Shown: positions 6,398 to 23,686 of the stretch, piece by piece
Position numbering within the stretch: position 1 is the stretch's first letter
How the letters are laid out: every line of letters starts with the position of its first letter
NCBI GenBank assembly: GCA_035501175.1
Contig: DATJWQ010000046.1
Location: forward strand, 9,701-73,700
Direction: 5' to 3'
Source of the DNA: Verrucomicrobiia bacterium
Lineage (GTDB): Bacteria > Verrucomicrobiota > Verrucomicrobiia > Palsa-1439
Length of the DNA stretch: 64,000 bases
The notes under the pieces: generated by a model
The model's input: the letters and a program-made list of their open reading frames with translations, nothing else
Database searches by the model: none
Told to the model about the DNA's origin: nothing
Position numbers and translations under genes: made by a program

Positions 6398-7525
6398 ATG
6401 ACCGACAGCGCCATCATTCGACCGACACGTACGCCATGGGGATTTCTGGCGTTCAACTTCGTTCTCTCGCGGCTGTTTCTCCTCACGGTGGCCAGGTTGG
6501 GTCTGCTGCTGTTCCAGAAAGGGGCGTTCTATACCCCACCAGGTTCGATTCTCGACTGGCTCAAGCAATGGGACTCTGGATGGTACCTGGGCATTGCGCA
6601 GAATGGATACAGGTACGTGCCTGGCCGGCAGTGCAATGTGGTGTTCTTCCCGCTGTACCCCATTCTAATGAGATGGCTTGCGTTCGGAGGTATGATCGAC
6701 TACCGCCTGATCGGTTATTTCATCTCCAACAGCAGCTTGTTTTTCGCGGCGGTGGTACTGTGGAAGCTGGCGGTGATCGAGATGCCGGATGAATCGTCCG
6801 CCCGGCGTGTCGTGCAGCTTGTGCTCTTCAATCCGGCGACCGTGTTCTACTCCTCAATTTACTCGGAATCCTTGTACCTGCTCTGTTTGGTGAGCACGCT
6901 GTACCTGGCCCGGGTGGAACGCTGGCTGTTGGCTGCGGTGTGCGCGTACGCTACGGGATTATCGCGGGTCGTGGGGCTGCTGCTCGTAATTCCACTGATC
7001 TGTGAGTACGTTCTTCAAAACCGTCGTGACTGGACCTGGCGCAACCTCAAAGCCTGGCGCGCGCTGGCCTGCATTGCGGCACCGGGGTTGGGATTCTTGA
7101 CCTATGTCGGATACCTTGATCGGACGTTTGGCGAGCCGCTGGCATTTATCAAGGCCGAGGTGGCTTGGGGAAGGAAACTCGTGTGGCCGTGGGTGCCGTT
7201 TCGCCACCTTGGCTGGTACGATCCGCCGTACGCGATTCTGTTTGTGTGCACCGCCATAATTGCGCTGGCCCTGCTTTTCGTTGCCGCGCGATGGCGGATG
7301 CGTCCCACATATCTTCTGGTTCTCGTGATCTTCCCCGCGATTTGCGTCTCCAGCAGCCGGCTGGAATCTCTCCCGCGCTACTTCTCCGTGCTGTTCCCGT
7401 TCTATTTCGTGCTCGCCCTGATAACTCGGAAATGGCCGCACTTGGCCGGGCCCCTATTCGTGCTGTTTGGAGGACTTCAGGTAATGGCGACCATCCTGTT
7501 TGTGAACGGGTACTGGTTCACGTGA
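6398..7525 (+). CDS. GT-C fold membrane mannosyltransferase-like protein (PIG-V / GT76-like)
   Basis: Motif WDSGWYLGIAQNGY followed by FFPLYP matches the PIG-V/Gpi18 mannosyltransferase signature (WDaehFl.IAehGY ... FFPLYP). About 10 predicted TM helices. Confidence 0.65.
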   Translation: MTDSAIIRPTRTPWGFLAFNFVLSRLFLLTVARLGLLLFQKGAFYTPPGSILDWLKQWDSGWYLGIAQNGYRYVPGRQCNVVFFPLYPILMRWLAFGGMIDYRLIGYFISNSSLFFAAVVLWKLAVIEMPDESSARRVVQLVLFNPATVFYSSIYSESLYLLCLVSTLYLARVERWLLAAVCAYATGLSRVVGLLLVIPLICEYVLQNRRDWTWRNLKAWRALACIAAPGLGFLTYVGYLDRTFGEPLAFIKAEVAWGRKLVWPWVPFRHLGWYDPPYAILFVCTAIIALALLFVAARWRMRPTYLLVLVIFPAICVSSSRLESLPRYFSVLFPFYFVLALITRKWPHLAGPLFVLFGGLQVMATILFVNGYWFT

Positions 7526-8546
7526 CCGCAGGGCGAGAGCGAATGTCATCCCCGGCTGCCAACGCCCGTTGCACGGCTGACGCTACCTCGCTCACCGTGA
7601 TCGCCGAGAAAGATCGTCGCCAGTAGCTCTTGCGCGACTCCCAGTGTTTGCGGCGGATGGGCTTTGTTACGATGATCGCCCGGTCGGTCAGGGGACGCCA
7701 GCGCGTCGGGCCGTAGAGCGGCGTGGTGCGTCCGAAGATTACCACGACGGGACAGCCGACTGCCGCTGCCAAGTGGCTCGGACCGGTGTCCCGAGTGACC
7801 AGCACACGCGCGTGCTTCAATAGCCAAGCCAATTCCGCCAGGTCCGTTCGGCCGGTCAGATTGAGGTGGTGCGCCGGGGCATTGGCGGGGGAATCGGCTG
7901 CGTCCGCGCCCACGAACACGAGCTTCAGATGCAGTTCCTGGTCGATCCAATCGGCCAGATGCAGGAAGTTCTCGGCGGGCCAGCGGGCGATCAGGGAATG
8001 GGCCGATGGATTCACCACAGCAAACGGGGTTGAAGGGAGTGGCCACGGCAGTTTCGCGCCAAGCGAGGCGAGCGCCGATTCTGGAAGATGGACGCTGGGA
8101 ATGAAACGGTCTGGAGATGGCACCCCGATAAGAGCCAACAGATCGAAGTTGTACGCCGCTTCATGTTTCATGCCCCTGGCACGTCGATCGGGCAGTCCGT
8201 GCGTGAGATATCGGGTCAGGAAACGCTCATGGTAGCCGATACGAACGGGTATGTTCGCCTGGTACGCGCCACAGTAGCATTCCGCATCAGGGTGAAGATG
8301 AATGACAGCATCGAATGCCAACTTCGCAAGGCACGTTGGATCGGAGAGGAAGCCGTCGAGATCCGGATGGCCATCGAACAGCGGGCGCATCCGTTCCGCC
8401 GCGAAGAAATAGAGCGTAGCGCGCGGAAAGCGCTGGCGAATCGGGGCGATACAGGAGGTCGAAATGATCACGTCGCCGACGCGATCGGGACGGGCGACAA
8501 GCAATCGCGGGGCATCAGGCAGCGTTAATCTCGTGGAGCAGGGCAT
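7518..8546 (-). CDS. glycosyltransferase family 9 (ADP-heptose:LPS heptosyltransferase-like)
   Basis: N-terminal LLVARPDRVGDVIISTS and C-terminal VTRDTGPSHLAAAVGCPVVVIFG motifs are typical of GT9 WaaC/WaaF-type enzymes. Confidence 0.8.
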   Translation of the reverse strand: MPCSTRLTLPDAPRLLVARPDRVGDVIISTSCIAPIRQRFPRATLYFFAAERMRPLFDGHPDLDGFLSDPTCLAKLAFDAVIHLHPDAECYCGAYQANIPVRIGYHERFLTRYLTHGLPDRRARGMKHEAAYNFDLLALIGVPSPDRFIPSVHLPESALASLGAKLPWPLPSTPFAVVNPSAHSLIARWPAENFLHLADWIDQELHLKLVFVGADAADSPANAPAHHLNLTGRTDLAELAWLLKHARVLVTRDTGPSHLAAAVGCPVVVIFGRTTPLYGPTRWRPLTDRAIIVTKPIRRKHWESRKSYWRRSFSAITVSEVASAVQRALAAGDDIRSRPAVT

Positions 8547-9696
8547 TCGTGTAATCGTCCCAGGAACGGAAGCGTCGCTGCCGGGCTTCGGCGAAAAGCC
8601 GGTCGTAAAGGGCGCGGTCGGTGAGCAACTGCCGCATCCCGTCGGCGACCGCGTTGGTGTCAGCGCAGGTGACCGTCAGGCAACCGCCTCCTGCCGAGAC
8701 TTCGCCGAGCGCGCCGTTGGCGCCGCAGACGCAGGGGCGTCCATGCCACAAGCTTTCGAGAATGGGCAATCCGAATCCTTCGCGCACGGACGGATACACC
8801 GTGAATGAGCAGTCATGGTAGGCCTGATGAAGAGCCTGGTCGCTGATGTGGCGCAGCCATTTCAGCGGGCGTCCCTGGTCCACCAAACGGTTGGCCTCCG
8901 TGAGAACCGTCGCGCCCCAGTCCGCCGTCATCCGTCCGACGAGAACCAATTCGAAGTCGAGGCCGCCGGCCCAAAGGGTCTCGGCCGCTTCCAGCAATTT
9001 CAAATGATTCTTGCGCCGCTCCAGCGTGGCGACGCAGAGGATTCGTCGCGTGTCGAAACGGGGCAGGGCGTCCGGTCGGTCTTTTCCGAAATCGGTGGGC
9101 CAACCCAGCACGGCAGTCGGCATGCGCGAGACTCCCAGGGATGTCCAATAATGCTGCAGATCATTCTCCACCTCGCAGGAGACGCAAACGACCTTGTCGA
9201 ACGCTCCGAGAGCCCGAACATACTCGGCGAAATTGGGCTGATGATCCTGCGCGGTCAGATCGGGCAGACGCAGGGCGATGGCGTCGTGAAACACGGCGTA
9301 ACATCGCCCCGGGAAACGTCTTGCGGGAGCCGTAAACTGATGGATACGTTTGTCCCGAAAGATCTCCGGTACGAACAACACGTCGTCGGTTGTCGCGGCG
9401 ATTTCCAGAGCGAATTGTCGTTTTCGATTACGAAAGTGGCGGATGGTTTTCGACCACGGGAATCGAATGACGACCTGTTCCGGTTTGGCGCTCGGGGCGC
9501 GGTGGCGGGCAAAGGGTTTCACGAGAAAGCGATGTTCGCGCGAGGACAGACGGCAGTAGGAATTCAGTTTGTCATTCCAGAGAATCGGCACCACGGCTGT
9601 GCGGCGACTGAGCGCGGCAAAGAGACCGCGCACCATTCGTTGCACGCCGGTGTTCAATGGCGACTTACAGGAACTGGAGACATCCAGGTAGAGCAC
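8515..9696 (-). CDS. glycosyltransferase family 4
   Basis: GT4 C-terminal motif REGFGLPILESLWHGRPCVCG and an E(x7)E-like region. Overlaps the GT9 gene on the same strand. Confidence 0.75.
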   Translation of the reverse strand: MLYLDVSSSCKSPLNTGVQRMVRGLFAALSRRTAVVPILWNDKLNSYCRLSSREHRFLVKPFARHRAPSAKPEQVVIRFPWSKTIRHFRNRKRQFALEIAATTDDVLFVPEIFRDKRIHQFTAPARRFPGRCYAVFHDAIALRLPDLTAQDHQPNFAEYVRALGAFDKVVCVSCEVENDLQHYWTSLGVSRMPTAVLGWPTDFGKDRPDALPRFDTRRILCVATLERRKNHLKLLEAAETLWAGGLDFELVLVGRMTADWGATVLTEANRLVDQGRPLKWLRHISDQALHQAYHDCSFTVYPSVREGFGLPILESLWHGRPCVCGANGALGEVSAGGGCLTVTCADTNAVADGMRQLLTDRALYDRLFAEARQRRFRSWDDYTNALLHEINAA

Positions 9697-9871: not shown

Positions 9872-11362
9872 GTGAGTTCAGACATCGTTATCGACGTAGA
9901 GAACGTATCGAAGGCCTACGCGATCTGGACCTCGCCCGCGGCTCGGTTGCACGGGCCGCTGTTGGGTCGCGTCGGACAATTGCCGTTTCTCCCCGCGGGC
10001 ACCCGCAACCTCTGCAAGCGGCTTTCACGCGAATCGTTCCGAAATTTCTACGCGCTGAAGAACATCTCATTCCAGGTCCGCCGTGGGGAAAGCTTCGGCA
10101 TCATCGGTCGCAACGGCTCGGGCAAGAGCACGCTGCTGCAGATCATCGCCGGGACGCTGATGCCGACGGAAGGCGAAACCCGCCTGGGCGGCAAGGTGGC
10201 GGCGCTGCTGGAATTGGGCAGCGGATTCAACCCGGAATTCACCGGCCGCGAGAACGTGTACATGAACGCCACGGTGCTGGGATTGAGCAGGCACCAAATC
10301 GATCTGAAATTCGACGAAATCGCCGATTTTGCCGACATTGGCGAATTCATTGATCAGCCGGTCAAGACGTACAGCAGCGGCATGCTGATGCGGCTCGCAT
10401 TCGCCGTGACGACGCGGGTGGACGCGGAAGTTGTCGTGATCGACGAGGCTCTGGCCGTGGGGGACATGTTTTTTCGGCAAAAATGCTACCAACATTTGGA
10501 ATCGTTGCGAGCCAAAGGCGTGTCCATTGTGCTGGTCTCGCATGGCATGGCAGATGTGGAGCAGTTCTGCCAGCGGGCCGTGTTGCTGCATCACGGCGAA
10601 CTGGTGTTCCAAGGGAGCGGTTCGGAAGCAGTCAAACGATATTATCTCGTCGAACAGGAAGAATACGCCCAGTCAATTGCGGCCAGTACCCCTCTTCCCC
10701 GGAGCCCGACCGCCCGGACGGTGGCCAGCGACGACGAGATTGAGTGGCCCACACCTGAGGCATTCCTCAATCTGTCGCGCGTGTCACAGGTGTCTAATGG
10801 CTGTGCGCGCTGTACCGGCGTCGCCATCTGTGATGCCGAGGGCCGCCCGTGTGCGGCCTTCCAGCAGGGAGAAACCGCGACGTTCTATTGCGAATTTGAA
10901 TTGGAGCGGGATATCGACGCGCCTTTGGCCGGCGTTGAGATCATTAACGACAAGGGGATCATTGTGCACGGGCGGACAACTCTCGAATACGGCGTGCCTG
11001 TTCCCTGCGGGGTGTCCCGGGGCAGTCGTCTGCGGTTGAAACAGGATATCACTCTCGAACTGGCCCTGGGCGAGTATACCTTCACGGTAGGACTGGGGAT
11101 GCTGGCACAACGAGATTACGAGATGGCCGATCGCTTCCCGCATGTCGAATTGCACAGCAAGATCGTGCGGCTTTGTGTTGTTCCAAAGGTTGGACAATTC
11201 TGCATTATCTTTCGTCGCGCCGGGAAGCCCGTGCAGTTGTTGCATCATGGCCTTGCGAATCTCCCCGGTTCGGCCCATCTGGTGGCCCGCGAAGGATCAC
11301 GCGCGTCAGCTCCGATTGAAACAGCAGTGGTGTTGGAGACGCATGATCGGGCGCATGTGTGA
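9872..11362 (+). CDS. wzt: polysaccharide export ABC transporter ATP-binding protein (Wzt/TagH/KpsT family) with a roughly 230-aa C-terminal extension, possibly a glycan-terminus-binding domain
   Basis: GTG start with AGGA ribosome-binding site. Walker A GRNGSGKST, signature YSSGMLMRLAFA, Walker B VVVIDEAL. The extra C-terminal domain is the arrangement seen in Wzt proteins that recognise capped O-antigen termini. Confidence 0.85.
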   Translation: MSSDIVIDVENVSKAYAIWTSPAARLHGPLLGRVGQLPFLPAGTRNLCKRLSRESFRNFYALKNISFQVRRGESFGIIGRNGSGKSTLLQIIAGTLMPTEGETRLGGKVAALLELGSGFNPEFTGRENVYMNATVLGLSRHQIDLKFDEIADFADIGEFIDQPVKTYSSGMLMRLAFAVTTRVDAEVVVIDEALAVGDMFFRQKCYQHLESLRAKGVSIVLVSHGMADVEQFCQRAVLLHHGELVFQGSGSEAVKRYYLVEQEEYAQSIAASTPLPRSPTARTVASDDEIEWPTPEAFLNLSRVSQVSNGCARCTGVAICDAEGRPCAAFQQGETATFYCEFELERDIDAPLAGVEIINDKGIIVHGRTTLEYGVPVPCGVSRGSRLRLKQDITLELALGEYTFTVGLGMLAQRDYEMADRFPHVELHSKIVRLCVVPKVGQFCIIFRRAGKPVQLLHHGLANLPGSAHLVAREGSRASAPIETAVVLETHDRAHV

Positions 11363-11398
11363 TGGTGAGACGGCCCGCGAAAGGTGCGACACTACCCG

Positions 11399-14300
11399 AT
11401 GAAAACCGGTCACCACAAACAAACGGATGTCGGCGGGGGTTCGCAGGGAGGTTCCCCCGTTCGCCGCGTGTGTTGGTGCGGCAACCTCCATTTTCAGGAA
11501 TTTGGAGGTGAGTATGGCTTGTGCCCGCAGTGTCAGACCTTGGTTTCGCTGGCCGGCACCGCGCCAGAAACCCGGATCACCAACGAGCAGGATTTCTACG
11601 GTGAGCAGTATTGGTATAAGCATCAGGTGGCGGAGTTGGGGTTCCCGAATATCCAAACGCGGGCGCGTATGGATATGCCCGAGCGATGCCTGTACTGGAT
11701 CCGGGCATTGCTCAGGTACAAATTGCCACCCGGGAAGGCGCTGGAGATGGGCTGTGCTCACGGCGGGTTTGTGAGCCTGCTCCGCTGGGCAGGGTTTGAT
11801 GCCGCCGGCTTGGAGATCAGCCCGTCCATTGCGGATCTGGCACGCTCCATTTTTGATGTGCCCGTGCTGGTCGGCCCCGTGGAGGATCAGTCGCTCGGCC
11901 AGAATAGCCTGGACGTGGTTGTCCTGATGGATGTGTTGGAGCATTTGCCGGAGCCCTTGGCGACGATCCGCCAATGCGTCAAGCTCCTCAGACCGGACGG
12001 GGTATTGCTCATCCAGACGCCGGAGTATCCCGCGGGGAAGCAGTATCAGCAGTTGGTTTCGGAGAAAAGCCGCTTTCTGGAGCAACTGAAGCCTCGCGAG
12101 CATCTCTTCCTGTTCAGTCAGGATTCGATCAAGCAATTCCTGATGCAGGCCGGATTGCGGAATCTGTCCTTCGAGCCGGCGATCTTCGGGCACTACGACA
12201 TGTTTTTTGTCGCGAGCCGCGCGCCGTTGCCAGTGCGAACCCCGGACGACATCGCACAGCAATTGTGTTCACAGGCTCCCGGGCGGCTGGTCTTGGCGCT
12301 CCTGGATTTGGACGAGCGGTTCCGGAACATGACTGCACGTTACGTCGAATCCGAAGCCGATCGTGGCGCCAGGCTGAACAGCATGCATGCCCTGGAGGCT
12401 CTCCTGAGGGAGTCCGAGACCGACCGCGCGGCGAGGCTGAAGGTGATTGAAGGACAGGGCGGCGAAATCGCCGTGTTGAACGCCGAGTTGAGGAGCCAGC
12501 AACAGGCTCGGACCGAAGCCGTCCATCGCCTGGGCGCGTTGGAATCGGAACTGTCACAGGCGGCGGCGCGATGTGCCGAGTTGAACGCCGAATTGAGGAG
12601 CCAGCAACAGGCTCGGACGGAAGTCTTGAATCGCCTGGGCACGTTGGAATCGGAACTGTCGCAGGCGATGGCCCGATGCGTCGCACTGGAGGGTGAGCGG
12701 GCTGCCACAGCGAGAGTGATTGAGGGACAACGTGGCGAAATCACCGGATTGAATGCCGAATTGCAGCGCCGGCAGAATCGCATGGATGCATTGGAAGCGG
12801 AATTGTCCCAAACTCACCGGACTCTGGGCGAACTTCAGCAGCGCCACGACGAACTGGATACTTCCTGCCAGCGGTTGCAAAACGAGTCACGATATCGCCA
12901 GGGACAATGGCAAACCTTGCTGCCTGCGTTGGAGAGCTTCCGAAACAGCGAAGCGCTCCATCTCCTTCGCTGGTGGAGGCCCCTACGTGAGCTGAATCAA
13001 GCTGCGCAGGCCGTTGTTCCCGAGCCCGCGCGCATCGAACCCCGTCCCCGTCGCCCGCAAACGCTCAGCCGCGTTTGGGTCGACCTGGCGCCCCTGCAGC
13101 CGGGGGGCGAAAACGGCGGCGCCAAATGGCTTGCGCTCGAATTGGTCAGGGAACTGGCGAGGCTCACCCCGGATTGTCAGTGGATCTTGCTTGCGTCCGA
13201 CAAGGCTCTTCCGGAACTGGCCGGCTATGCGAGGGAGAATATAAGCTGCTCCCGCGCTGACGCACGGCCCCGGAGACGGGGCCGCAACGGCTCACCCAAA
13301 CAAGCCTGGCGCATGCTGGGGTCAAACCGGTCATCATTGCCCCGACCGGATCTGGTGTTCTGTCCGTTTACGACCGCACGTCTGTATACCGACGATGTGC
13401 CGCTGGTCGCCGTCGTGCATGATCTTCAATACCTGGTTTATCCGCAGTTCTTCAGCGAACACGAGAGATCCCACCGGGCGAGGGAATTCAGTGATGTGTG
13501 CCGTTTTGCCTCGCGGATCATTTGCGTTTCCGACGCCGTGCGGGAAGCTGTCGTGCGGGAGGGAATGATCCAACCACACCGGGTGAAGAGCGTTCACACG
13601 CGGCTCTTTCACCGTCTACCGTCGCCAGCGGCGACAGCCGTGGCGCGGACCTTGCATCGGCTCCACGTGGAACCGGGCCGGTATCTGCTCTATCCGGCGA
13701 ATTTCTGGGCTCACAAGAACCACGAGATGCTCCTGACGGCGTTTGGCATGTACCGGGCCCGGGCGCCGGGTTCCGAAGTAAAGTTGGCTTTCACTGGGGC
13801 TCCCGGTGATCGAAGCGAGGAATTGCGGAAGATCGCTCGCCGCATGGGTCTGCAATCTGTCGTGGAGTTTTTGGGATTCCTGCCGGGGGATGACTTCGCG
13901 GCGGTGCTCAGCGGTTGTCGAGCCGTGATCTTTCCGTCGCTGTTCGAGGGGTTTGGATTGCCGGTACTGGAGGCCATGGCGTTTGACAAGCCCGTCTTGT
14001 GCAGCAATGGAACCGCCTTATCCGAAGTCTCGGGTGAGGCAGCGTTGTTTTTCGATCCTCGAAAACCGAAGACCATTGTCGCCGCGCTGGAGAGGCTTGA
14101 GAATGACTCGTCCCTGGCGCCGAAGTTGGTCGCTCTCGGTCGCCGCCGGTTGGCGGAGCTGGGGGGCGCCGAGGTGATGGCCCGCGACTACCTGCGGATT
14201 TTCCAGGAAGCGTTGAAGGAAGATGACAATTGGGTCCCTGCGGCGCGCGGCATTTACGGGGACGGGTGGACCCAGGATCGTATAACCATCGTTTACGACA

Positions 14301-14617
14301 GCAGCAACGTCTCCCGCTACCTGGAGCTGGAGCTTCGTGCGCCGCCATGGTTGCCCTCGCCGGCGGTGTCCGTAACGATCACCGGCGGAAAAGACCGTCG
14401 TGACCACCAGACCCGGCAGATCCGACGCGGGCACTCGGTGGTGTTGCGTCGCGCCCTCCCCGAGGCGGGAGGAAGAGTCGAAATTCGGATCGATCCGTGT
14501 TTTCAACCCAGCGCTGTCAATCTGGGACCTGACACGCGCCTGCTGGGATGCTTTTGCGACCAGTGTCGGATCGTATCGGTTGACGGTAGCTCCGCGCTGT
14601 ATCAGAAGGACAGATGA
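11399..14617 (+). CDS. multidomain protein: N-terminal Zn-ribbon plus class I SAM methyltransferase, central coiled coil with tandem repeats, C-terminal GT4 glycosyltransferase (putative chain-terminator/ruler-polymerase fusion)
   Basis: CxxC...CxxC then methyltransferase motifs (LEMGCAHGGF; VVVLMDVLEHLPEP). Residues around 300-520 are a heptad-rich coiled coil with 35-aa repeats. C-terminal GT4 motif FPSLFEGFGLPVLEAMAFDKPVLCS. Stop overlaps the next gene start (ATGA). Confidence 0.8.
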   Translation: MKTGHHKQTDVGGGSQGGSPVRRVCWCGNLHFQEFGGEYGLCPQCQTLVSLAGTAPETRITNEQDFYGEQYWYKHQVAELGFPNIQTRARMDMPERCLYWIRALLRYKLPPGKALEMGCAHGGFVSLLRWAGFDAAGLEISPSIADLARSIFDVPVLVGPVEDQSLGQNSLDVVVLMDVLEHLPEPLATIRQCVKLLRPDGVLLIQTPEYPAGKQYQQLVSEKSRFLEQLKPREHLFLFSQDSIKQFLMQAGLRNLSFEPAIFGHYDMFFVASRAPLPVRTPDDIAQQLCSQAPGRLVLALLDLDERFRNMTARYVESEADRGARLNSMHALEALLRESETDRAARLKVIEGQGGEIAVLNAELRSQQQARTEAVHRLGALESELSQAAARCAELNAELRSQQQARTEVLNRLGTLESELSQAMARCVALEGERAATARVIEGQRGEITGLNAELQRRQNRMDALEAELSQTHRTLGELQQRHDELDTSCQRLQNESRYRQGQWQTLLPALESFRNSEALHLLRWWRPLRELNQAAQAVVPEPARIEPRPRRPQTLSRVWVDLAPLQPGGENGGAKWLALELVRELARLTPDCQWILLASDKALPELAGYARENISCSRADARPRRRGRNGSPKQAWRMLGSNRSSLPRPDLVFCPFTTARLYTDDVPLVAVVHDLQYLVYPQFFSEHERSHRAREFSDVCRFASRIICVSDAVREAVVREGMIQPHRVKSVHTRLFHRLPSPAATAVARTLHRLHVEPGRYLLYPANFWAHKNHEMLLTAFGMYRARAPGSEVKLAFTGAPGDRSEELRKIARRMGLQSVVEFLGFLPGDDFAAVLSGCRAVIFPSLFEGFGLPVLEAMAFDKPVLCSNGTALSEVSGEAALFFDPRKPKTIVAALERLENDSSLAPKLVALGRRRLAELGGAEVMARDYLRIFQEALKEDDNWVPAARGIYGDGWTQDRITIVYDSSNVSRYLELELRAPPWLPSPAVSVTITGGKDRRDHQTRQIRRGHSVVLRRALPEAGGRVEIRIDPCFQPSAVNLGPDTRLLGCFCDQCRIVSVDGSSALYQKDR
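12475..12685 (+). repeat. two tandem copies of a 105-bp (35-aa, five-heptad) repeat inside the coiled-coil segment, flanked by degenerate copies
   Basis: 12475-12579 and 12580-12684 are about 90% identical (gttgaacgccgaRttgaggagccagcaacaggctcggac...). More diverged copies lie around 12430 and 12740. Confidence 0.8.
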
Positions 14618-16788: not shown

Positions 16789-19155
16789 ATGAGTCGATAT
16801 TTGGAGTTAGGAGCGGAAGAAGGCAGGTCCTCTTGGTGGGCTGAATTCCTGACGTTCTCGCCCGTCTGGTTGGCTCTTGTGATTATGCTCCCGCGACTTC
16901 TCCAGCCGCACTTCGGTTTACTCGACGACGGGGTCACCCTCAGTGCCAGTCAAGGTGTCGGGGGTTGGACGCTGCCATTTCACATGTCCGGTGATACGGG
17001 CAGGTTCTGTCCTGTTTACTGGGCTTACTACCGCGCCATCTACAAGATCGTGGGTGCCAGACCGCTGCTTTTTTTTGGCGCCCAGTGCGTTCTCTTGGCC
17101 GCTACGGTCGCCGGGCTGATCCACTTTGGCCGACTGGTTGGCGCCAGCCGGTTCCAAGCCGGCACTGCGGGACTCTTCTTTGTGGTCTCCGGTCCTGTCA
17201 TCGAGAACTTCTATACCATCTCGAAGGCGGAGCCCATCCAGGTTTTGCTCCTCCTTTGTTCGCTTATTTTGGCGGAGTACTGTGCTCGGCAGGGCGCGCT
17301 TAAACGACAAATTGGATTTGTATTGGTAATTGCGGGCATGCTGCTGATGGCGAATGGGGCCAAGGAAACCAGTTTGGTGATGATCCCGATCAGCATGGCC
17401 CTGCTTGCAGTGACTCTGGTCCGAAAGCGCTGGCGGAGAGAAGGTCCCCCCGTTCGAGACAGCATCCTCTTCGTGTTTGCGACTCTTGTCGCCGGGATGG
17501 CATTCCTGCTTCTGCGCAAGCATTTTTCGACCTCTTCAATTGCCTCGGGCAGCTACACAAAAGCGTACTCTCTGGTCAATGTCCACGACTCGGCTTGGCG
17601 GCTACTGGCATGGTTGATTAGAGATTTCCCCCAACTGTTGCCATTGGGGGTTGTTGCGGGCCTGTCGTACAAACAGCGTAACCTATCCCAAAGCCGGCTA
17701 TTGTGGCTCTCGGTGATATGGATGCTGTTCTGGATGGGGATTTTTGCCCCTTGGCATTCTTGCTTGGAGTATTACCTGTTGCCCTTTGCGATGGGTTCCG
17801 CGCTCTTTTTCGGGCTGACCGTTGCCGAAGGCATCGACATGCTGTCTCAACCCGGCAAGGGGATTCCAAGGGTTGTCGCCGCCATATGCATGGTGGTCGC
17901 TGTCTGGCTGACCCAATTTACCGTCATAAATAATATTACCAATGCCAGGGTCCAGCTGAACGTTGACCGGGTGAATTCGAAGCTTGTGAGGTTTCTGGCT
18001 GGGTTGCCGGTGGACAGCCGTGTTCTTATCAATCTCTTGGAACCAAATGAATACACCTACGAGGTGGGAGTACACCTGCGGGATTTGAATCGCCGACCCG
18101 ATCTGCACGTTGATTACTTCCGGTTTCAGACCGCGACTCCGACTGAGCCAACAACGACCTATTATGTCGCGTCACCCCTGATGACCAATCAATTGCTCCC
18201 GTCGGTTCGCGTGGCCGTCGACGAATCAACAGCCAATGTGATGACCGAGTGCTTGGCTGGTTTTCTCGGCGAAACGGATCCGCTGGTTTATCATTCGCAA
18301 GCCGCCTTTCCATTATTGGATATTGGTTTCCAACGGATTCTATGTGGACTCGGTGTCGACGGCTTGGATTGCGGGGTGCCGAGAGCGTTTGTCGAAGGTC
18401 GGACTTTCCTTTACGGCTGGCAGGTGCATCGTGTGGTTCGGGAAATCTTGCATCAGGCGCGTCCCGGCAGATATTATGCAGGTGGAAGGTGGGAGCTAAG
18501 CGGCCCTGCCGCGGTGGTACAGAGGATTCAGTTTGGCAAGGACGCTGACCTGCCCGTTGTGGGAGACTGGAACGGGGATGGTTCAACCGGTATCGGCGTG
18601 TTCCGACCGTCTGACCTGACGTGGCGACTGGATTCTAACATGAACGGCACAACGGGGCTGGTGTTTCGGTTTGAGGGGATGAAAGCTGGCGACATTCCGA
18701 TTGTCGGAGATTGGGATGGCAACGGTACCGCCACCCCGGGGTATTTTCGTCCCGCAGACGCCAGCTGGCACCTGCGAAACAGTAATTCAACGGGCGCTGA
18801 AGACTGGCCGATTCTGCACTTCGGGATGCCAACGGATCTCCCCGTTGTTGGTGATTGGAATGGTGAGGGTCGCGATACCATTGGGATTTATCGACCGGAG
18901 AATGGCGAAGTGGACCTGAAGAATGACCTCAGTCCGGCACCGGCTCAAATCGTGTTCAGTGCACCGCGGAACGCGAAGCCAGTCGTGGGAAAGTGGTCTG
19001 GAGGCAGGGTCTGCACATTCGCTTTTGTTGTCGGGACCAATTGGAAATTGCGGCCGGTGAATTGTCAGGCCCCGGTTCTCAATCCGCCAGCCGATTTCGA
19101 GTTTGGCTCCACGGAAGGCCGTCCTGTGGCTGGGAACTGGAGGCCGGGACCGTGA
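16789..19155 (+). CDS. GT-C fold polytopic membrane glycosyltransferase-like protein with a C-terminal domain of FG-GAP-like repeats
   Basis: About 12 TM helices, with an acidic DD motif in the first extracytoplasmic loop (FGLLDDGV). The C-terminal 250 aa contain four VGDWNGDG...G.FRP repeats. Sits directly upstream of a GtrB-like gene. Confidence 0.6.
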   Translation: MSRYLELGAEEGRSSWWAEFLTFSPVWLALVIMLPRLLQPHFGLLDDGVTLSASQGVGGWTLPFHMSGDTGRFCPVYWAYYRAIYKIVGARPLLFFGAQCVLLAATVAGLIHFGRLVGASRFQAGTAGLFFVVSGPVIENFYTISKAEPIQVLLLLCSLILAEYCARQGALKRQIGFVLVIAGMLLMANGAKETSLVMIPISMALLAVTLVRKRWRREGPPVRDSILFVFATLVAGMAFLLLRKHFSTSSIASGSYTKAYSLVNVHDSAWRLLAWLIRDFPQLLPLGVVAGLSYKQRNLSQSRLLWLSVIWMLFWMGIFAPWHSCLEYYLLPFAMGSALFFGLTVAEGIDMLSQPGKGIPRVVAAICMVVAVWLTQFTVINNITNARVQLNVDRVNSKLVRFLAGLPVDSRVLINLLEPNEYTYEVGVHLRDLNRRPDLHVDYFRFQTATPTEPTTTYYVASPLMTNQLLPSVRVAVDESTANVMTECLAGFLGETDPLVYHSQAAFPLLDIGFQRILCGLGVDGLDCGVPRAFVEGRTFLYGWQVHRVVREILHQARPGRYYAGGRWELSGPAAVVQRIQFGKDADLPVVGDWNGDGSTGIGVFRPSDLTWRLDSNMNGTTGLVFRFEGMKAGDIPIVGDWDGNGTATPGYFRPADASWHLRNSNSTGAEDWPILHFGMPTDLPVVGDWNGEGRDTIGIYRPENGEVDLKNDLSPAPAQIVFSAPRNAKPVVGKWSGGRVCTFAFVVGTNWKLRPVNCQAPVLNPPADFEFGSTEGRPVAGNWRPGP

Positions 19156-19175: not shown

Positions 19176-20192
19176 ATGCTTTCGATGGATATTATTGTGC
19201 CGCTGTTTAATGAGGAACTGGTCCTCACGGAATTCCACGGGCAATTGGTCCAGGCGGTTTCCAAACTACCGTGCGAGATCCGGATTCTATATGTCGATGA
19301 CGGCTCATCCGATGACACACCGGCTCTGTTGCAGAACCTGGCAAACAAGGATTCGCGCGTGGCGTTCATCAGGTTCAGCCGCAATTTTGGCCATCAGTCC
19401 GCGCTTACGGCCGGCTTGGATCACGCTGACGCCGATATTGTCATCATGATGGATGGCGACGGGCAGCATCCGCCGCAACTGATCCCGGAGATGGTCGACC
19501 AGTTCCGCGCTGGTTACGATGTGGTTCTGACTCAACGGAGCGACGAAGCCGGATTGTCATTCCTGAAGCGGAAGAATTCGCAGCTGTTTTACGGGCTCAT
19601 CAACCGCATTGGAAATACAAGGATCATTCCCGGCGCTGCCGACTTCCGCTTGCTGTCGCATCGCGCGGTAGACGCTCTCCGTCAGATGCCTGAGTATCAT
19701 CGATTCCTGCGCGGCATGGTGTCCTGGGTCGGGTTCCGAACAGCGATTCTGCCGTATACGGCTCCAGCCCGCCTCCATGGGAGCTCCAAGTATTCCCCTG
19801 GCAAGATGATGAGGCTGGCCATGGATGCCATCTTCTCGTTCTCGCTGGTGCCCCTTCAAATCGGCCTGGTTCTCGGTCTCTTGTTCTTCGTCCTGGCCGC
19901 ACTTGAAGTCATCTACGTCCTGAGCTTTTGGGTGCGGGGCAAACAAGCGTTGCTGGTGCCCGGCTGGAGCTCTTTGATGTTTGTTATACTTATCACCGGG
20001 GGGTTTCTCATGACGCTGGTCGGTCTGATCGGCAATTATGTGGGATATATTTTCCAGGAAGTGAAACATCGTCCTGTCTACGTGATTCAAACGGCGCACA
20101 TGGAGTCCCGGAGCGCACGGCCACTCCGTTCATTAGGCGAACTTCCTCGTTCACCAAAGACGTTGGAGACCCGGCCGGGCCCGCGACAATGA
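19176..20192 (+). CDS. polyprenyl-phosphate sugar synthase (GT2; GtrB/ArnC/dolichol-phosphate-mannose synthase-like) with C-terminal TM helices
   Basis: DIIVPLFNEE, YVDDGSSDDT and MDGDGQHPP motifs, plus two C-terminal TM helices, as in GtrB/ArnC. Confidence 0.8.
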   Translation: MLSMDIIVPLFNEELVLTEFHGQLVQAVSKLPCEIRILYVDDGSSDDTPALLQNLANKDSRVAFIRFSRNFGHQSALTAGLDHADADIVIMMDGDGQHPPQLIPEMVDQFRAGYDVVLTQRSDEAGLSFLKRKNSQLFYGLINRIGNTRIIPGAADFRLLSHRAVDALRQMPEYHRFLRGMVSWVGFRTAILPYTAPARLHGSSKYSPGKMMRLAMDAIFSFSLVPLQIGLVLGLLFFVLAALEVIYVLSFWVRGKQALLVPGWSSLMFVILITGGFLMTLVGLIGNYVGYIFQEVKHRPVYVIQTAHMESRSARPLRSLGELPRSPKTLETRPGPRQ

Positions 20193-21043
20193 CCACAAGC
20201 TGCCCCTGCTGTGAAGCTCGCGATTGGATCCGTCGCTGGCCCGGATTTGTTATCTGCGCCCAATGTGGCGTCATGATGTTTGAACAGCAGGTCGATCTCG
20301 CAACGTTGCGGCCGCACTACGGAACCGACTACTTCCAGGGCCACGAGTATCTGGATTATCAGGGGGACCGCGCGATCCACGAAAAGACCTTGCTGCGGCA
20401 CCTGCGCCTCGTGAAACGGTTCGTCCCCAGAGGCGAAGGGCTTTTGGAAATGGGCGCCGCTTACGGCTTCTTCTTGGAGCTGGCGCAGTCATATTATCCT
20501 GATTCCGTCGGGGTGGAGTTGTCAGCCGACGCGGCGAAGTCGGCCGTCGCGCGAGGGCTGGACGTGAGAACCGGCGATTTGCTGGAATTGGATTTTGATC
20601 GCTCTTTTGCAGCAGTCTGCTTGTGGGATACCATTGAGCATCTGCCCCATCCCTATGAGACTGTTCATCGAGCGGTAGGTCTGCTGAAGCCCGGGGGCTA
20701 TATGTTTCTGACAACCGGCGATTTTGGTGCGTGGCTACCTCGACTGCAAGGGCTTCGATGGAGACAGATTCATCCTCCCACACATTTGTTCTACTTTACT
20801 CGCCGATCCTTGGACCGTTTATGCCTGCGTTGCGGTCTTGTTGTGCTGGAGTTCGGCACCGTGAGTGTTTTCCGCAGGCTGCGATCCTCGTTGAGATCTC
20901 TCGACCAGTTTCATGCAAACACCTTGCCCGGCCGACTTGCCAAAGCTGCTCTACGGATCCTCCCCGGCCGACTGCTGGATTGTGGCTTCCCGCTGAATCT
21001 GGGAGACACGATGTTCTTGGTGGCCCAAAAGCCCGTTCTTTAG
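20189..21043 (+). CDS. class I SAM-dependent methyltransferase with an N-terminal Zn-ribbon
   Basis: ATG overlaps the upstream stop (ATGA). CPCCEA...CAQCG zinc ribbon; LEMGAAYGFF and LWDTIEHLPHP methyltransferase motifs. Confidence 0.7.
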   Translation: MTTSCPCCEARDWIRRWPGFVICAQCGVMMFEQQVDLATLRPHYGTDYFQGHEYLDYQGDRAIHEKTLLRHLRLVKRFVPRGEGLLEMGAAYGFFLELAQSYYPDSVGVELSADAAKSAVARGLDVRTGDLLELDFDRSFAAVCLWDTIEHLPHPYETVHRAVGLLKPGGYMFLTTGDFGAWLPRLQGLRWRQIHPPTHLFYFTRRSLDRLCLRCGLVVLEFGTVSVFRRLRSSLRSLDQFHANTLPGRLAKAALRILPGRLLDCGFPLNLGDTMFLVAQKPVL

Positions 21044-21116: not shown

Positions 21117-22127
21117 ATGATACCCGAACCCAAGTGTTCCAATGAGGAGTTTGTCGAGTTTTGCTACCAGAGGGTGCTCCGTCGGGCCAGCGACCCGCAG
21201 GGACGTGAGGAAAAGATCGCGGCTCTGAATCGCGGACTGTCCCGACTCGATCTGCTGCTGCAGTTCTTGGACTGTCCCGAGTTTCTCTCCCGGGCATCCG
21301 AGTGGGTTCCGCCCGGCCACTTCTATTCGCCCATTCCCAACCTGCAGGACATTGCCGACCGGCTCAAGGATCTTCGGCTCGACGCTCAGGCATGCCCGAA
21401 TCTCGACATGCGGGACAACGAGCAAGTCCGCCTGCTCAATGCCCTTGCCGCCTATTACCCGGACCAGCCGTTTTCTGCAAAGCCATCAGCTCCGCTCCGG
21501 TATTATTTCGACAATGATTCCTTCCCATACGGCGACGCACTGGTTCTGTATGCGATGCTGCGGCACTTCAAACCCTCGCAAATCATTGAAATCGGCTCGG
21601 GGTATTCATCGGCAGTGATGCTGGACACCAACGACTTGTTTTTGGAGGGGAGCATCCGGCTCACGTTCATCGAACCCTACCCGCAACGGTTGTACGGCCT
21701 GTTGAGTGAAGACGACAAAGGGCACCACCGCGTTGTGGAACAGCCGGTTCAGAAAATGCCGGTGGCGGTGTTCCGTGAACTCAAGGCCGGAGATATCCTG
21801 TTTGTGGACTCCACCCATGTTGCCAAGTGCAACAGTGATGTGTTGTATGTTTTCTTCGAGATTATCCCCTCCCTGGCGGACGGTGTACTGATTCATTTTC
21901 ACGACATCTTCTGGCCGTTCGAATACCCCGCCAAATGGCTGCAGGAAGGCCGGGCGTGGAACGAGGCGTACTTCCTTCGAACGTTTCTGGAATACAATCA
22001 CAGATTCCAGGTTGTCTATGGCAGCAGCTACATGGCGCACTTTCATTCGGATCTTCTCCAGGAGAAAATGCCCCTGGTCATGCGCAACACTGGTGGGAGT
22101 TTCTGGTTGAAGAAGTTGCCCGCTTGA
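21117..22127 (+). CDS. DUF4214-like N-terminal domain fused to a TylF/CmcI-type class I methyltransferase (likely sugar O-methyltransferase)
   Basis: N-terminus EFVEFCYQRVLRRASDPQGREEKIAALNRG resembles DUF4214. IIEIGSGYSS and DILFVDSTHV resemble the Methyltransf_24 (macrocin O-methyltransferase) family. Confidence 0.6.
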   Translation: MIPEPKCSNEEFVEFCYQRVLRRASDPQGREEKIAALNRGLSRLDLLLQFLDCPEFLSRASEWVPPGHFYSPIPNLQDIADRLKDLRLDAQACPNLDMRDNEQVRLLNALAAYYPDQPFSAKPSAPLRYYFDNDSFPYGDALVLYAMLRHFKPSQIIEIGSGYSSAVMLDTNDLFLEGSIRLTFIEPYPQRLYGLLSEDDKGHHRVVEQPVQKMPVAVFRELKAGDILFVDSTHVAKCNSDVLYVFFEIIPSLADGVLIHFHDIFWPFEYPAKWLQEGRAWNEAYFLRTFLEYNHRFQVVYGSSYMAHFHSDLLQEKMPLVMRNTGGSFWLKKLPA

Positions 22128-22220: not shown

Positions 22221-22787
22221 ATGCAAATGCGCAAGCAATCAACGGGGATTCGCGACTGCGAAGTGCTGATGCCCGAGGTGTTCGAAGATGCGCGAGGATT
22301 TTTCCTCGAGGTGTTTCGCGCGGATCAGTTCCGGGAATTCGGGCTGCCCGAACGATTTCAGCAATGGAATCATTCCCGCTCGTGCCAGAACGTCGTGCGC
22401 GGCCTGCATTTCCAGACCGATCCACCGATGGCCAAGATGATGCGTGTGACGCTTGGCGAGGCGTTTGTGGTCGCGGTGGATATCCGCAAGAACTCGCCAA
22501 CGCTGGGGCAGCATTTTGCGACCATTGCCTCGGCGGATAACAAGAAGATGGTTTACGCACCCCCGGGATTCGCCCGCGGGTTTGCCGTTCTCTCCGACTA
22601 TGCAGAGGTCCAATACCTGTGCACGAGCATTTACAACGTCAAGACGGAGTCGGGCATCCGCTGGAATGATCCGGCGCTGGCCATCCCGTGGCCCGTAACG
22701 AACCCGATCTTGTCGGGGAAGGATGAGAAGGCGCAGACGTTGGCGGAATGGTTGAAGCGCCCCGAATCGAATGCGTTCGTCTATTGA
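22221..22787 (+). CDS. dTDP-4-dehydrorhamnose 3,5-epimerase family protein (RmlC-like cupin)
   Basis: ATG preceded by GAGGAGGA ribosome-binding site. Motifs FFLEVFR, RGLHFQ and YAPPGFARGFAVLSD match the RmlC fold. Confidence 0.7.
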   Translation: MQMRKQSTGIRDCEVLMPEVFEDARGFFLEVFRADQFREFGLPERFQQWNHSRSCQNVVRGLHFQTDPPMAKMMRVTLGEAFVVAVDIRKNSPTLGQHFATIASADNKKMVYAPPGFARGFAVLSDYAEVQYLCTSIYNVKTESGIRWNDPALAIPWPVTNPILSGKDEKAQTLAEWLKRPESNAFVY

Positions 22788-22882
22788 GGAGATCAAGTGC
22801 GCTTGTGAATGTGTCCGAGCAAACACCGGTGTGGACAGTGAATCGCGCAACGGGCCAGCCAGTCTCTCTGGTCCGTCTGCTG

Positions 22883-23686
22883 ATGCCGTGGCAAATGGTC
22901 CATGATCTGCGCCGGCACAGCTCGTTGATCTGGCAATTCACCAAGCGCGACGTGCTGATGCGTTACCGCGGATCGTATCTGGGCATCTTGTGGTCGCTGT
23001 TGCGTCCGCTCTGTATGCTGGCGGTGTTCTTCGTCGTGTTCGGCTACATCTTTCAGTCGCGGTGGGGCCACGACCAGAACGAGACCCGCATCGACTACGC
23101 GCTGGGATTGTTCTGCGGTCTGATCGCCTTTGATTTCATGGCCGAATGCCTCGCCCGGGCGCCGACTCTCGTCCTGTCGAACCCGAACTACGTGACCCGG
23201 GTGGTGTTCCCGGTCGAGATTCTGCCCGTGTCCGCCGTCGGCGGGGCGCTGTTGCACATGGTGCTCAGTTCGATCCCGTTGTGTTTGGGATACCTCTTCG
23301 TGCACGGCTCGCTGCACCTGACGGCGCTGTATCTGCCGCTGATTTTCATTCCGTTGGCGCTTTTGGGGCTGGGACTGACATGGCTGTTTGCCAGCCTCGG
23401 GGTGTTCATTCGTGACATCAATTCATTCGTGCCCGTGCTGATCACGATTCTGATGTACGCCAGTGCGATCTTCTATCCGATCAGCCGGGTGCCCGCGGCA
23501 ATGCTGCCCGCGGTGATCCACAATCCGCTGGCCGTATTGGTGGAGAACACGCGCAACGTGTTTATGTGGGGGATGCCATTGAACTGGGGGCAGTACCTGT
23601 CCGCGACGCTGCTCTGCCTTGTCATCATGTTGTTCGGCTACGGGTTCTTTATGAAGACCAAGAACGCGTTCGCGGACGTGGTTTAG
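22883..23686 (+). CDS. wzm: ABC-2 type polysaccharide export permease (Wzm/KpsM/TagG family)
   Basis: N-terminal LIWQFTKRDVLMRYRGSYLGILWSLLRPL motif followed by six TM helices. The start could be an upstream GTG at 22805. Confidence 0.8.
   Translation: MPWQMVHDLRRHSSLIWQFTKRDVLMRYRGSYLGILWSLLRPLCMLAVFFVVFGYIFQSRWGHDQNETRIDYALGLFCGLIAFDFMAECLARAPTLVLSNPNYVTRVVFPVEILPVSAVGGALLHMVLSSIPLCLGYLFVHGSLHLTALYLPLIFIPLALLGLGLTWLFASLGVFIRDINSFVPVLITILMYASAIFYPISRVPAAMLPAVIHNPLAVLVENTRNVFMWGMPLNWGQYLSATLLCLVIMLFGYGFFMKTKNAFADVV

Follow-up and report, generated by a model that had tools for sequence, protein, structure and literature searches.

A probably old in-frame 105-bp duplication in the coiled-coil spacer of a Verrucomicrobiia methyltransferase-glycosyltransferase with ruler-like architecture

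Introduction

Coiled-coil rulers are the accepted means of length control for capped polysaccharides that are exported by ATP-binding cassette (ABC) transporters, and until now they have been supported by insertions and deletions (indels) engineered into a few enterobacterial proteins. Here we describe a 105-bp tandem repeat in the coiled coil of such a candidate protein from an uncultured Verrucomicrobiia bacterium (GTDB lineage Palsa-1439). The repeat lies on a stretch of 64,000 nucleotides (GenBank assembly GCA_035501175.1, contig DATJWQ010000046.1, positions 9,701 to 73,700 of the forward strand). This whole stretch is called the window, and all coordinates are counted from its first letter. 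The gene encodes a single polypeptide that joins a methyltransferase (MT), a coiled coil (CC) and a glycosyltransferase (GT) of family GT4, and it is part of a Wzm/Wzt glycan cluster. We consider it likely that the repeat is an old in-frame duplication in the spacer of this enzyme and that it has become fixed.

The tandem duplication

The repeat pair and the segments of the coil that resemble it are the following:

12470 to 12574, plus strand: tandem repeat copy 1, 105 nt, 35 aa, five heptads (Tandem Repeats Finder (TRF), repeat search and base-by-base comparison)
12575 to 12679, plus strand: tandem repeat copy 2, 92 of 105 nt identical to copy 1, no indels
12749 to 12811, plus strand: degenerate relative of the unit (LNAELQRRQNRMDALEAELSQ), one heptad shorter (local protein alignment)
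12422 to 12501, plus strand: "DRAARLKVIEGQGGEI..." segment leading into copy 1 (repeat search)
12695 to 12774, plus strand: "ERAATARVIEGQRGEI..." segment, partner of 12422-12501 (repeat search)

TRF finds one array at 12470-12678 (period 105, 2.0 copies, 88% matches, 0% indels, score 334), and a second repeat search of the window returns the units 12470-12574 and 12575-12679 with 88% identity. At the base composition of the window the binomial chance of at least 92 matches in 105 positions is 1.4e-39, and after correction for all window positions and periods the chance of such a match is ~4e-32. The similarity at an offset of 105 ends abruptly at 12470 and 12573, and these sharp ends indicate that there are exactly two tandem units. 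A preliminary description of this DNA had reported two tandem units of about 90% identity at 12475 and 12580. The pair is real, but its identity is ~87-88% and its best phase lies 5 nt earlier, with 92/105 identical positions by base count in the 12470/12575 phase and 91/105 in the shifted one.

Both units are in frame in the open reading frame (ORF) 11384/11399-14617 and encode the 35-aa segments AVLNAELRSQQQARTEAVHRLGALESELSQAAARC and AELNAELRSQQQARTEVLNRLGTLESELSQAMARC. Frame, length and register all agree with the five-heptad segments proposed earlier, and the peptide quoted at that time is in the true frame. With the textbook coiled-coil rise of 0.1485 nm per residue, one unit extends over ~5.2 nm (35 x 0.1485 nm) with the register kept, in line with the first estimate of about 5 nm. 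The tandem duplication is real and its heptad register is maintained. It had also been suggested that the pair is flanked by degenerate copies, and this holds only in part: on the downstream side the shortened relative at 12749-12811 begins 56 aa after the start of copy 2 and so does not stand in tandem, and on the upstream side there is only a 21-aa motif. The two partner segments at 12422-12501 and 12695-12774 share 71% identity at a spacing of 273 nt (13 heptads), and the coil as a whole is made of nested heptad-multiple repeats. Three minus-strand ORFs that run over the repeat (12129-12686, 12340-12783 and 12554-12880) were interpreted as shadow ORFs in GC-rich coding DNA.

The two copies differ at 13 nucleotide positions, with five synonymous and six non-synonymous codon differences, and the longest exact run that they have in common is 26 nt. 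By the Nei-Gojobori method (NG86) the synonymous divergence (dS) is 0.25 and the non-synonymous divergence (dN) is 0.10, which gives a dN/dS of ~0.4. A dS of ~0.25, together with the absence of any exact run longer than 26 nt, indicates a long period without homogenising exchange. From these features the pair is best read as the fixed fossil of one block-gain event and not as a high-frequency switch; rare loss or gain of a unit by slippage or unequal exchange could take place.

The identical protein is found on six contigs. Two of them (L001 and L002, from ENA and Logan assemblies) were compared at the DNA level and are 100% identical to the window; they may represent the same strain and are uninformative on variation. 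The 26-mer common to both copies had 0 matches in the metagenome and genome contig collections, and no same-species variant was present in the databases searched, in which the protein search was empty between 100% and <50% identity.

The host protein and its coil

The gene and the modules of its product are arranged as follows:

11399 to 14617, plus strand: MT / coiled-coil / GT4 gene, 1072 aa; the frame opens with GTG at 11384, and ATG at 11399 gives the database protein P0001
11672 to 12169, plus strand: N-terminal class I S-adenosylmethionine (SAM)-methyltransferase (Methyltransf_23, E=4e-23, aa 97-262), by analogy the presumed chain-terminating module
12275 to 12943, plus strand: alpha-helical coiled-coil spacer (aa 293-515, 223 residues), ~33 nm if fully extended
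12347 to 12441, plus strand: two copies of a 21-aa motif at the coil start (12347-12378 and 12410-12441, 63 nt apart; repeat search)
13115 to 14134, plus strand: GT4 (GT-B fold) glycosyltransferase module (Glyco_transf_4 and Glycos_transf_1, aa 578-917), presumed polymerase component
14240 to 14605, plus strand: C-terminal all-beta domain (aa 948-1069), strands with a predicted local distance difference test (pLDDT) score of ~90 in the AlphaFold2 (AF2) model

P0001, which was found by protein search, is 100% identical and is named "MAG TPA: glycosyltransferase [Verrucomicrobiae bacterium]". A CxC...CxxC zinc ribbon precedes the methyltransferase domain, and the methyltransferase region is modelled by AF2 at high confidence as alternating Rossmann-type strands and helices. 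A Foldseek search with the whole AF2 model matches GT4 and related GT-B enzymes, with MshA and BshA at the top (E to 4e-19). The C-terminal beta domain (aa 948-1069) has no Pfam match and carries residues that are near-invariant across the family (G951, D955, W957, P1037, D1045, R1047 and L1049); it could serve in membrane or glycan binding at the polymerase end.

Between the two catalytic ends, AF2 and DSSP give a single uninterrupted helix from residue 293 to 515 with block-mean pLDDT of ~48-83. Simple scoring of the a and d positions follows one unbroken heptad register over ~aa 347-517 (~170 residues), a stretch that takes in the two copies and the junction between them. Of the differences between the copies, a single one affects a core position, a conservative change from Ala to Val at a d position, and coiled-coil character is retained in both copies. 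For the motif E-x-E-x-D-R-x-A-R-L of the coil start, a 60-sequence alignment shows at least 90% conservation of D321 and R325. In most homologues this part of the coil is conserved in sequence beyond the heptad pattern, and in many homologues a motif E-[AS]-E-A-D-R-A-A-R-L is repeated 2-13 times. Such conservation points to a specific role of the coil start besides spacing.

The gene cluster

The genes of the cluster that bear on export and capping are:

9872 to 11362, plus strand: wzt, ABC-transporter ATPase with C-terminal Wzt_C (ABC_tran E=9.5e-21; Wzt_C E=3.8e-13, aa 308-409)
22748 to 23686, plus strand: wzm, ABC-2 type permease (ABC2_membrane E=5.6e-19)
19928 to 21043 and 21117 to 22127, plus strand: two further methyltransferase genes

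wzt stands directly upstream of the MT-CC-GT4 gene, and the presence of wzm and wzt in the same cluster is what is expected of an ABC-dependent glycan. The two transporter genes are ~11 kb apart with GT and methyltransferase genes between them, and the cluster also holds GT2, GT4 and GT9 genes and the two more methyltransferases. Wzt contains a carbohydrate-binding domain, as seen from the presence of Wzt_C, which by analogy would recognise the cap. In the protein encoded next to it, the extended coil separates the N-terminal methyltransferase from the C-terminal GT4 module. The product of 19928-21043 has a zinc ribbon and a Methyltransf_23 domain and shares 28% identity (E=1e-17) with the N-terminal domain of the coiled-coil protein.

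Upstream of wzt and divergent from it lie a GT4 gene (8515-9696, minus strand) and a GT9 heptosyltransferase gene (7518-8546, minus strand). At 16789-19155 on the plus strand a 788-aa protein is encoded that has no Pfam match; its N-terminal half is hydrophobic and multi-pass, and its C-terminal half contains several "VVGDWNGDG"-type (FG-GAP/VCBS-like) repeats.

Comparison across the family

The protein search gave 185 matches at E <= 1e-10, and of the 120 best listed, 107 align with both the MT and the GT segment of the query. Besides the identical protein, the closest relative is <50% identical. Full-length matches occur in genomes of Bryobacterales, Chloroflexota, Chlorobium, Verrucomicrobiota, Desulfovibrio and Omnitrophota, and the gene order MT-CC-GT4, GT2, GT4 was found in every relative examined. 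The gene that comes next encodes a protein of ~800 aa without a Pfam match in L001/L002 and in the related contigs L005/L007, and an epimerase in L003/L004; L006 ends earlier. Since it takes the same position in L005 and L007, the ~800-aa protein may be a conserved partner. In one related lineage (L005, L006 and L007) the place of the Wzt ATPase is occupied by a 440-aa protein with Wzt_C and a sulfotransferase, encoded directly upstream of MT-CC-GT4 (L005 2685-4007, L006 364-1686, L007 2685-4007).

The spacer was defined from the conserved end of the MT domain to the start of the GT domain, and its length ranges from 36 to 689 aa across ~100 homologues. A significant internal repeat (z >= 10) is present in 51 spacers, and 48 of these have their best offset at a multiple of 7 aa. 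An offset of 21 is the most frequent, followed by 42 and 63, and offsets of 28, 35, 49, 56, 70, 84, 105 and 126 also occur; the window protein has its best offset at 35 aa (z=26.7). The weaker of these signals may reflect heptad periodicity alone. The stronger ones, with 50-85% identity, come from true tandem arrays, for example in P0027, where a 42-aa unit extends over ~500 residues. No counterpart of the 35-aa unit above 35% identity was found in any other family member, which indicates that the duplication is lineage-specific.

Another question is whether the coil changes in length between close relatives. Proteins were grouped into 90%-identity clusters, and near-identical full-length members were compared for internal indels. 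Five clusters have such indels, and every one of them is located in the coil:

P0027 / P0122: 42 aa indel, 100% identity elsewhere
P0130 / P0133 (and P0007): 67 aa indel, 100% identity elsewhere
P0135 / P0016: 21 aa indel, three versus two copies of ERLAETQxQLAALQAERGRFE, 95.8% identity elsewhere
P0144 / P0142: 42 aa indel, 99.6% identity elsewhere
P0150 / P0153: 21 aa indel, 99.1% identity elsewhere

In four of the five the indel block consists of whole tandem-repeat units, and the P0150/P0153 block is not tandem-like. At the DNA level a 126-bp tandem duplication is present in L007 and absent from L005 and L006; the contigs come from different samples and have flanks that are 99.1-99.4% identical. 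A 126-bp unit is also found in 11.5 copies in L003 and in 10.5 copies in L004. Ten control clusters, mostly with weak or no internal repeats, contained no coil indel among near-identical members; where their lengths differed, the cause was the start-codon call or, once, a garbled C-terminus. P0130 carries its 67-aa unit twice, and P0133 and P0007 each have one copy, in two different versions, with 100% identity to P0130 in the remainder; these alleles reflect either two independent deletions within a single population or two ways in which assembly collapsed the repeat.

The proposal that the coil is lengthened or shortened by gain or loss of repeat blocks thus finds its examples in related genes, as single blocks of 21, 42 or 67 aa. 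These sequence comparisons support coil length change by block indels between strains of related genes. Heptad-multiple tandem units together with strain-level copy differences make a family pattern that is more interesting than the pair in the window.

Discussion

The placement of the repeat in a ruler context is well supported by architecture, through analogy with proteins of known function. If the analogy to WbdD, WbbB and Klebsiella pneumoniae O7 ORF6 holds, the protein would oligomerise via its coil and its GT4 end would extend a lipid-linked glycan at the membrane. The methyltransferase, ~33 nm away, would then cap only those chains that are long enough to reach it, and the carbohydrate-binding domain of Wzt would pick the capped chain for export. 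On this mechanism the methyltransferase would be the chain terminator, the length of the coil would set the modal glycan length, and the duplication would have added ~5 nm to the ruler.

WbdD of Escherichia coli O9a has a ~20-nm trimeric coil that keeps the capping domains off the membrane; with engineered insertions the modal O-antigen length rises, and with deletions it falls (PMC5082667; PMC6286764). The window protein is similar to WbdD in having a presumed methyltransferase-type terminator on an extended coiled coil, which is parallel in WbdD, and a Wzt with a carbohydrate-binding module (CBM). In contrast, WbdD has a kinase domain and is not fused to the polymerase WbdA, which it recruits non-covalently, and its coil is shorter than the ~33 nm predicted here. 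K. pneumoniae O7 ORF6 consists of a methyltransferase(-kinase), a CBM, a coiled coil and two GT2 modules, and its coil was called a hallmark ruler (PMC11231755). Compared by architecture as described, and not by sequence, both proteins have an N-terminal methyltransferase, a central coiled coil and a C-terminal GT in one polypeptide, encoded in a wzm/wzt cluster with other GTs separate. The window protein differs in that it has no kinase or CBM between MT and coil, so that the MT runs straight into the helix 293-515, and in that a single GT4 (GT-B) module takes the place of the two GT2 modules and an extra C-terminal beta domain is present. WbbB of K. pneumoniae O12 likewise unites terminator, coil and polymerase in one protein, with its terminator, a GT99 transferase of 3-deoxy-D-manno-oct-2-ulosonic acid (Kdo), N-terminal and membrane-distal (PMC11231755); the cap is Kdo in WbbB, whereas here it would be a methyl group. 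In the literature, a dependence of modal glycan length on coil length is documented for WbdD and WbbB only (PMC5082667; PMC6286764; PMC11231755).

Several points weigh against reading the protein as a ruler with a fixed duplication. The ruler function is assigned by analogy, from architecture alone. A single-sequence search of the PDB (E <= 0.001) gave 13 matches, all generic GT4 enzymes or class I methyltransferases, with no WbdD or WbbB structure among the matches listed, and neither protein is among the best 60 of 253 profile matches (E <= 1). Without such a sequence match, membership in the ruler group would be architectural or functional and not that of a shared sequence family. The methyltransferase could act on internal sugars instead of capping, and the chain may be capped by one of the two other methyltransferases in the cluster. 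The AF2 confidence of the coil is moderate and dips below 50 at aa 381-388, within copy 1. The total MT-to-GT spacing shows no preference for multiples of seven (60 aligned homologues, chi-square p = 0.35), a signal that is probably blurred by variable non-coil loops, and the 67-aa indel is not a heptad multiple. P0027/P0122 and P0130/P0133/P0007 have flanks that are 100% identical, and their indels could be short-read assembly collapses; the three other indel clusters have diverged flanks and look robust. Finally, stability at the window locus is deduced from sequence features and not from isolates.

One explanation that would do without a ruler is that the coil serves in oligomerisation or as a scaffold only, and that the duplication is neutral, having changed the length of a linker under only loose constraint. 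The wide span of homologue spacers, the total spacing without a preference for multiples of seven and the lack of a sequence link to proven rulers all fit this explanation, and in some ABC-dependent systems it is stoichiometry and not a ruler that sets the length (PMC6286764). Yet, a terminator-type domain and a GT are placed at opposite ends of a 223-residue helix next to a Wzt with a CBM, and this is the combination that marks ruler systems (PMC11231755). The dN/dS of ~0.4 and the heptad core kept in both copies argue that the coil is maintained. In addition, one subgroup of the family has a spacer that is constant at 104 aa though its proteins are only 79% identical, which suggests a length constraint there. 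We therefore regard a mere scaffold as unlikely, though still to be reckoned with.

The preliminary description went further and likened the repeat to a contingency locus; on this reading the copy number would often change in populations and retune the glycan chain length. Classical contingency loci, as in Neisseria, Haemophilus and Campylobacter, are long tracts of many identical 1-7 bp units that work as on/off switches by frameshift or promoter spacing. The likeness of the window repeat to these is confined to the idea of repeat copy number as a heritable, reversible knob for a surface structure; its unit is 105 bp, its two copies are diverged, and a copy change would give a graded length change instead of on or off. 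Closer in unit size are the streptococcal M and alpha C proteins, which have large in-frame repeat units in many near-identical copies with visible variation between isolates. In these, as it would be in the window protein, gain or loss of in-frame units makes an elongated protein longer or shorter and leaves it intact; in contrast, the window protein is cytoplasmic and has two diverged copies only. Actively varying arrays of large units have near-identical copies, and sequence divergence suppresses tandem-repeat deletion. Among the relatives, one adjacent pair in L003 is 126/126 identical, and the polymorphic pair in L007 is 119/126 identical with a longest shared run of 61 nt. The window has 2.0 copies in place of many slippage-prone ones, 12% diverged (88% identical by TRF), with a longest run of 26 nt and, at a dS of ~0.25, no sign of homogenisation by ongoing exchange, and both assemblies compared at the DNA level are identical to it. 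What speaks for a contingency-type element is that coil blocks are polymorphic between near-identical strains of relatives, that any copy change in the window pair would stay in frame and keep the heptad register, and that in E. coli perfect 101-bp tandem repeats are lost at a measurable rate through RecA-independent template switching (PMC7145654). In the literature we found nothing directly usable on the effect of divergence on tandem-repeat deletion, and no directly usable report of natural repeat polymorphism in ruler coils. Taken together, a contingency locus is very improbable here, and this part of the preliminary description is not supported.

An artefact of metagenome assembly, in which the pair would stem from a spurious duplication or from the collapse of a longer array, is hardly credible: tandem repeats are known to cause assembly errors (PMC6868369) and two of the polymorphisms in relatives may be such artefacts, yet a 210-bp array with 13 differing positions is resolvable by ordinary reads, and the same protein is on six contigs, with the two compared at the DNA level (from ENA and Logan assemblies) base-identical to the window.

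The fixed duplication in a candidate ruler is in itself a modest result; it adds another environmental example of a known architecture, with a duplication that is ordinary, old and probably stable. A wider possibility, which we put forward tentatively and think rather unlikely, is that this widespread family uses tandem coil blocks of 21-126 aa as a length dial. Strains of one species would then differ by one unit (~3-6 nm) and by their modal glycan lengths, and the pair in the window would be one setting, still able to step on ecological timescales. If this is true, it would become directly testable whether polysaccharide chain length is tuned in nature by repeat indels. The strain-level indels, should they prove real and alter glycan length, would reveal how a ruler is adjusted in nature. 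The repeat count would then offer a simple way to read a surface trait from sequence in uncultured Verrucomicrobiota, Acidobacteriota and other phyla.

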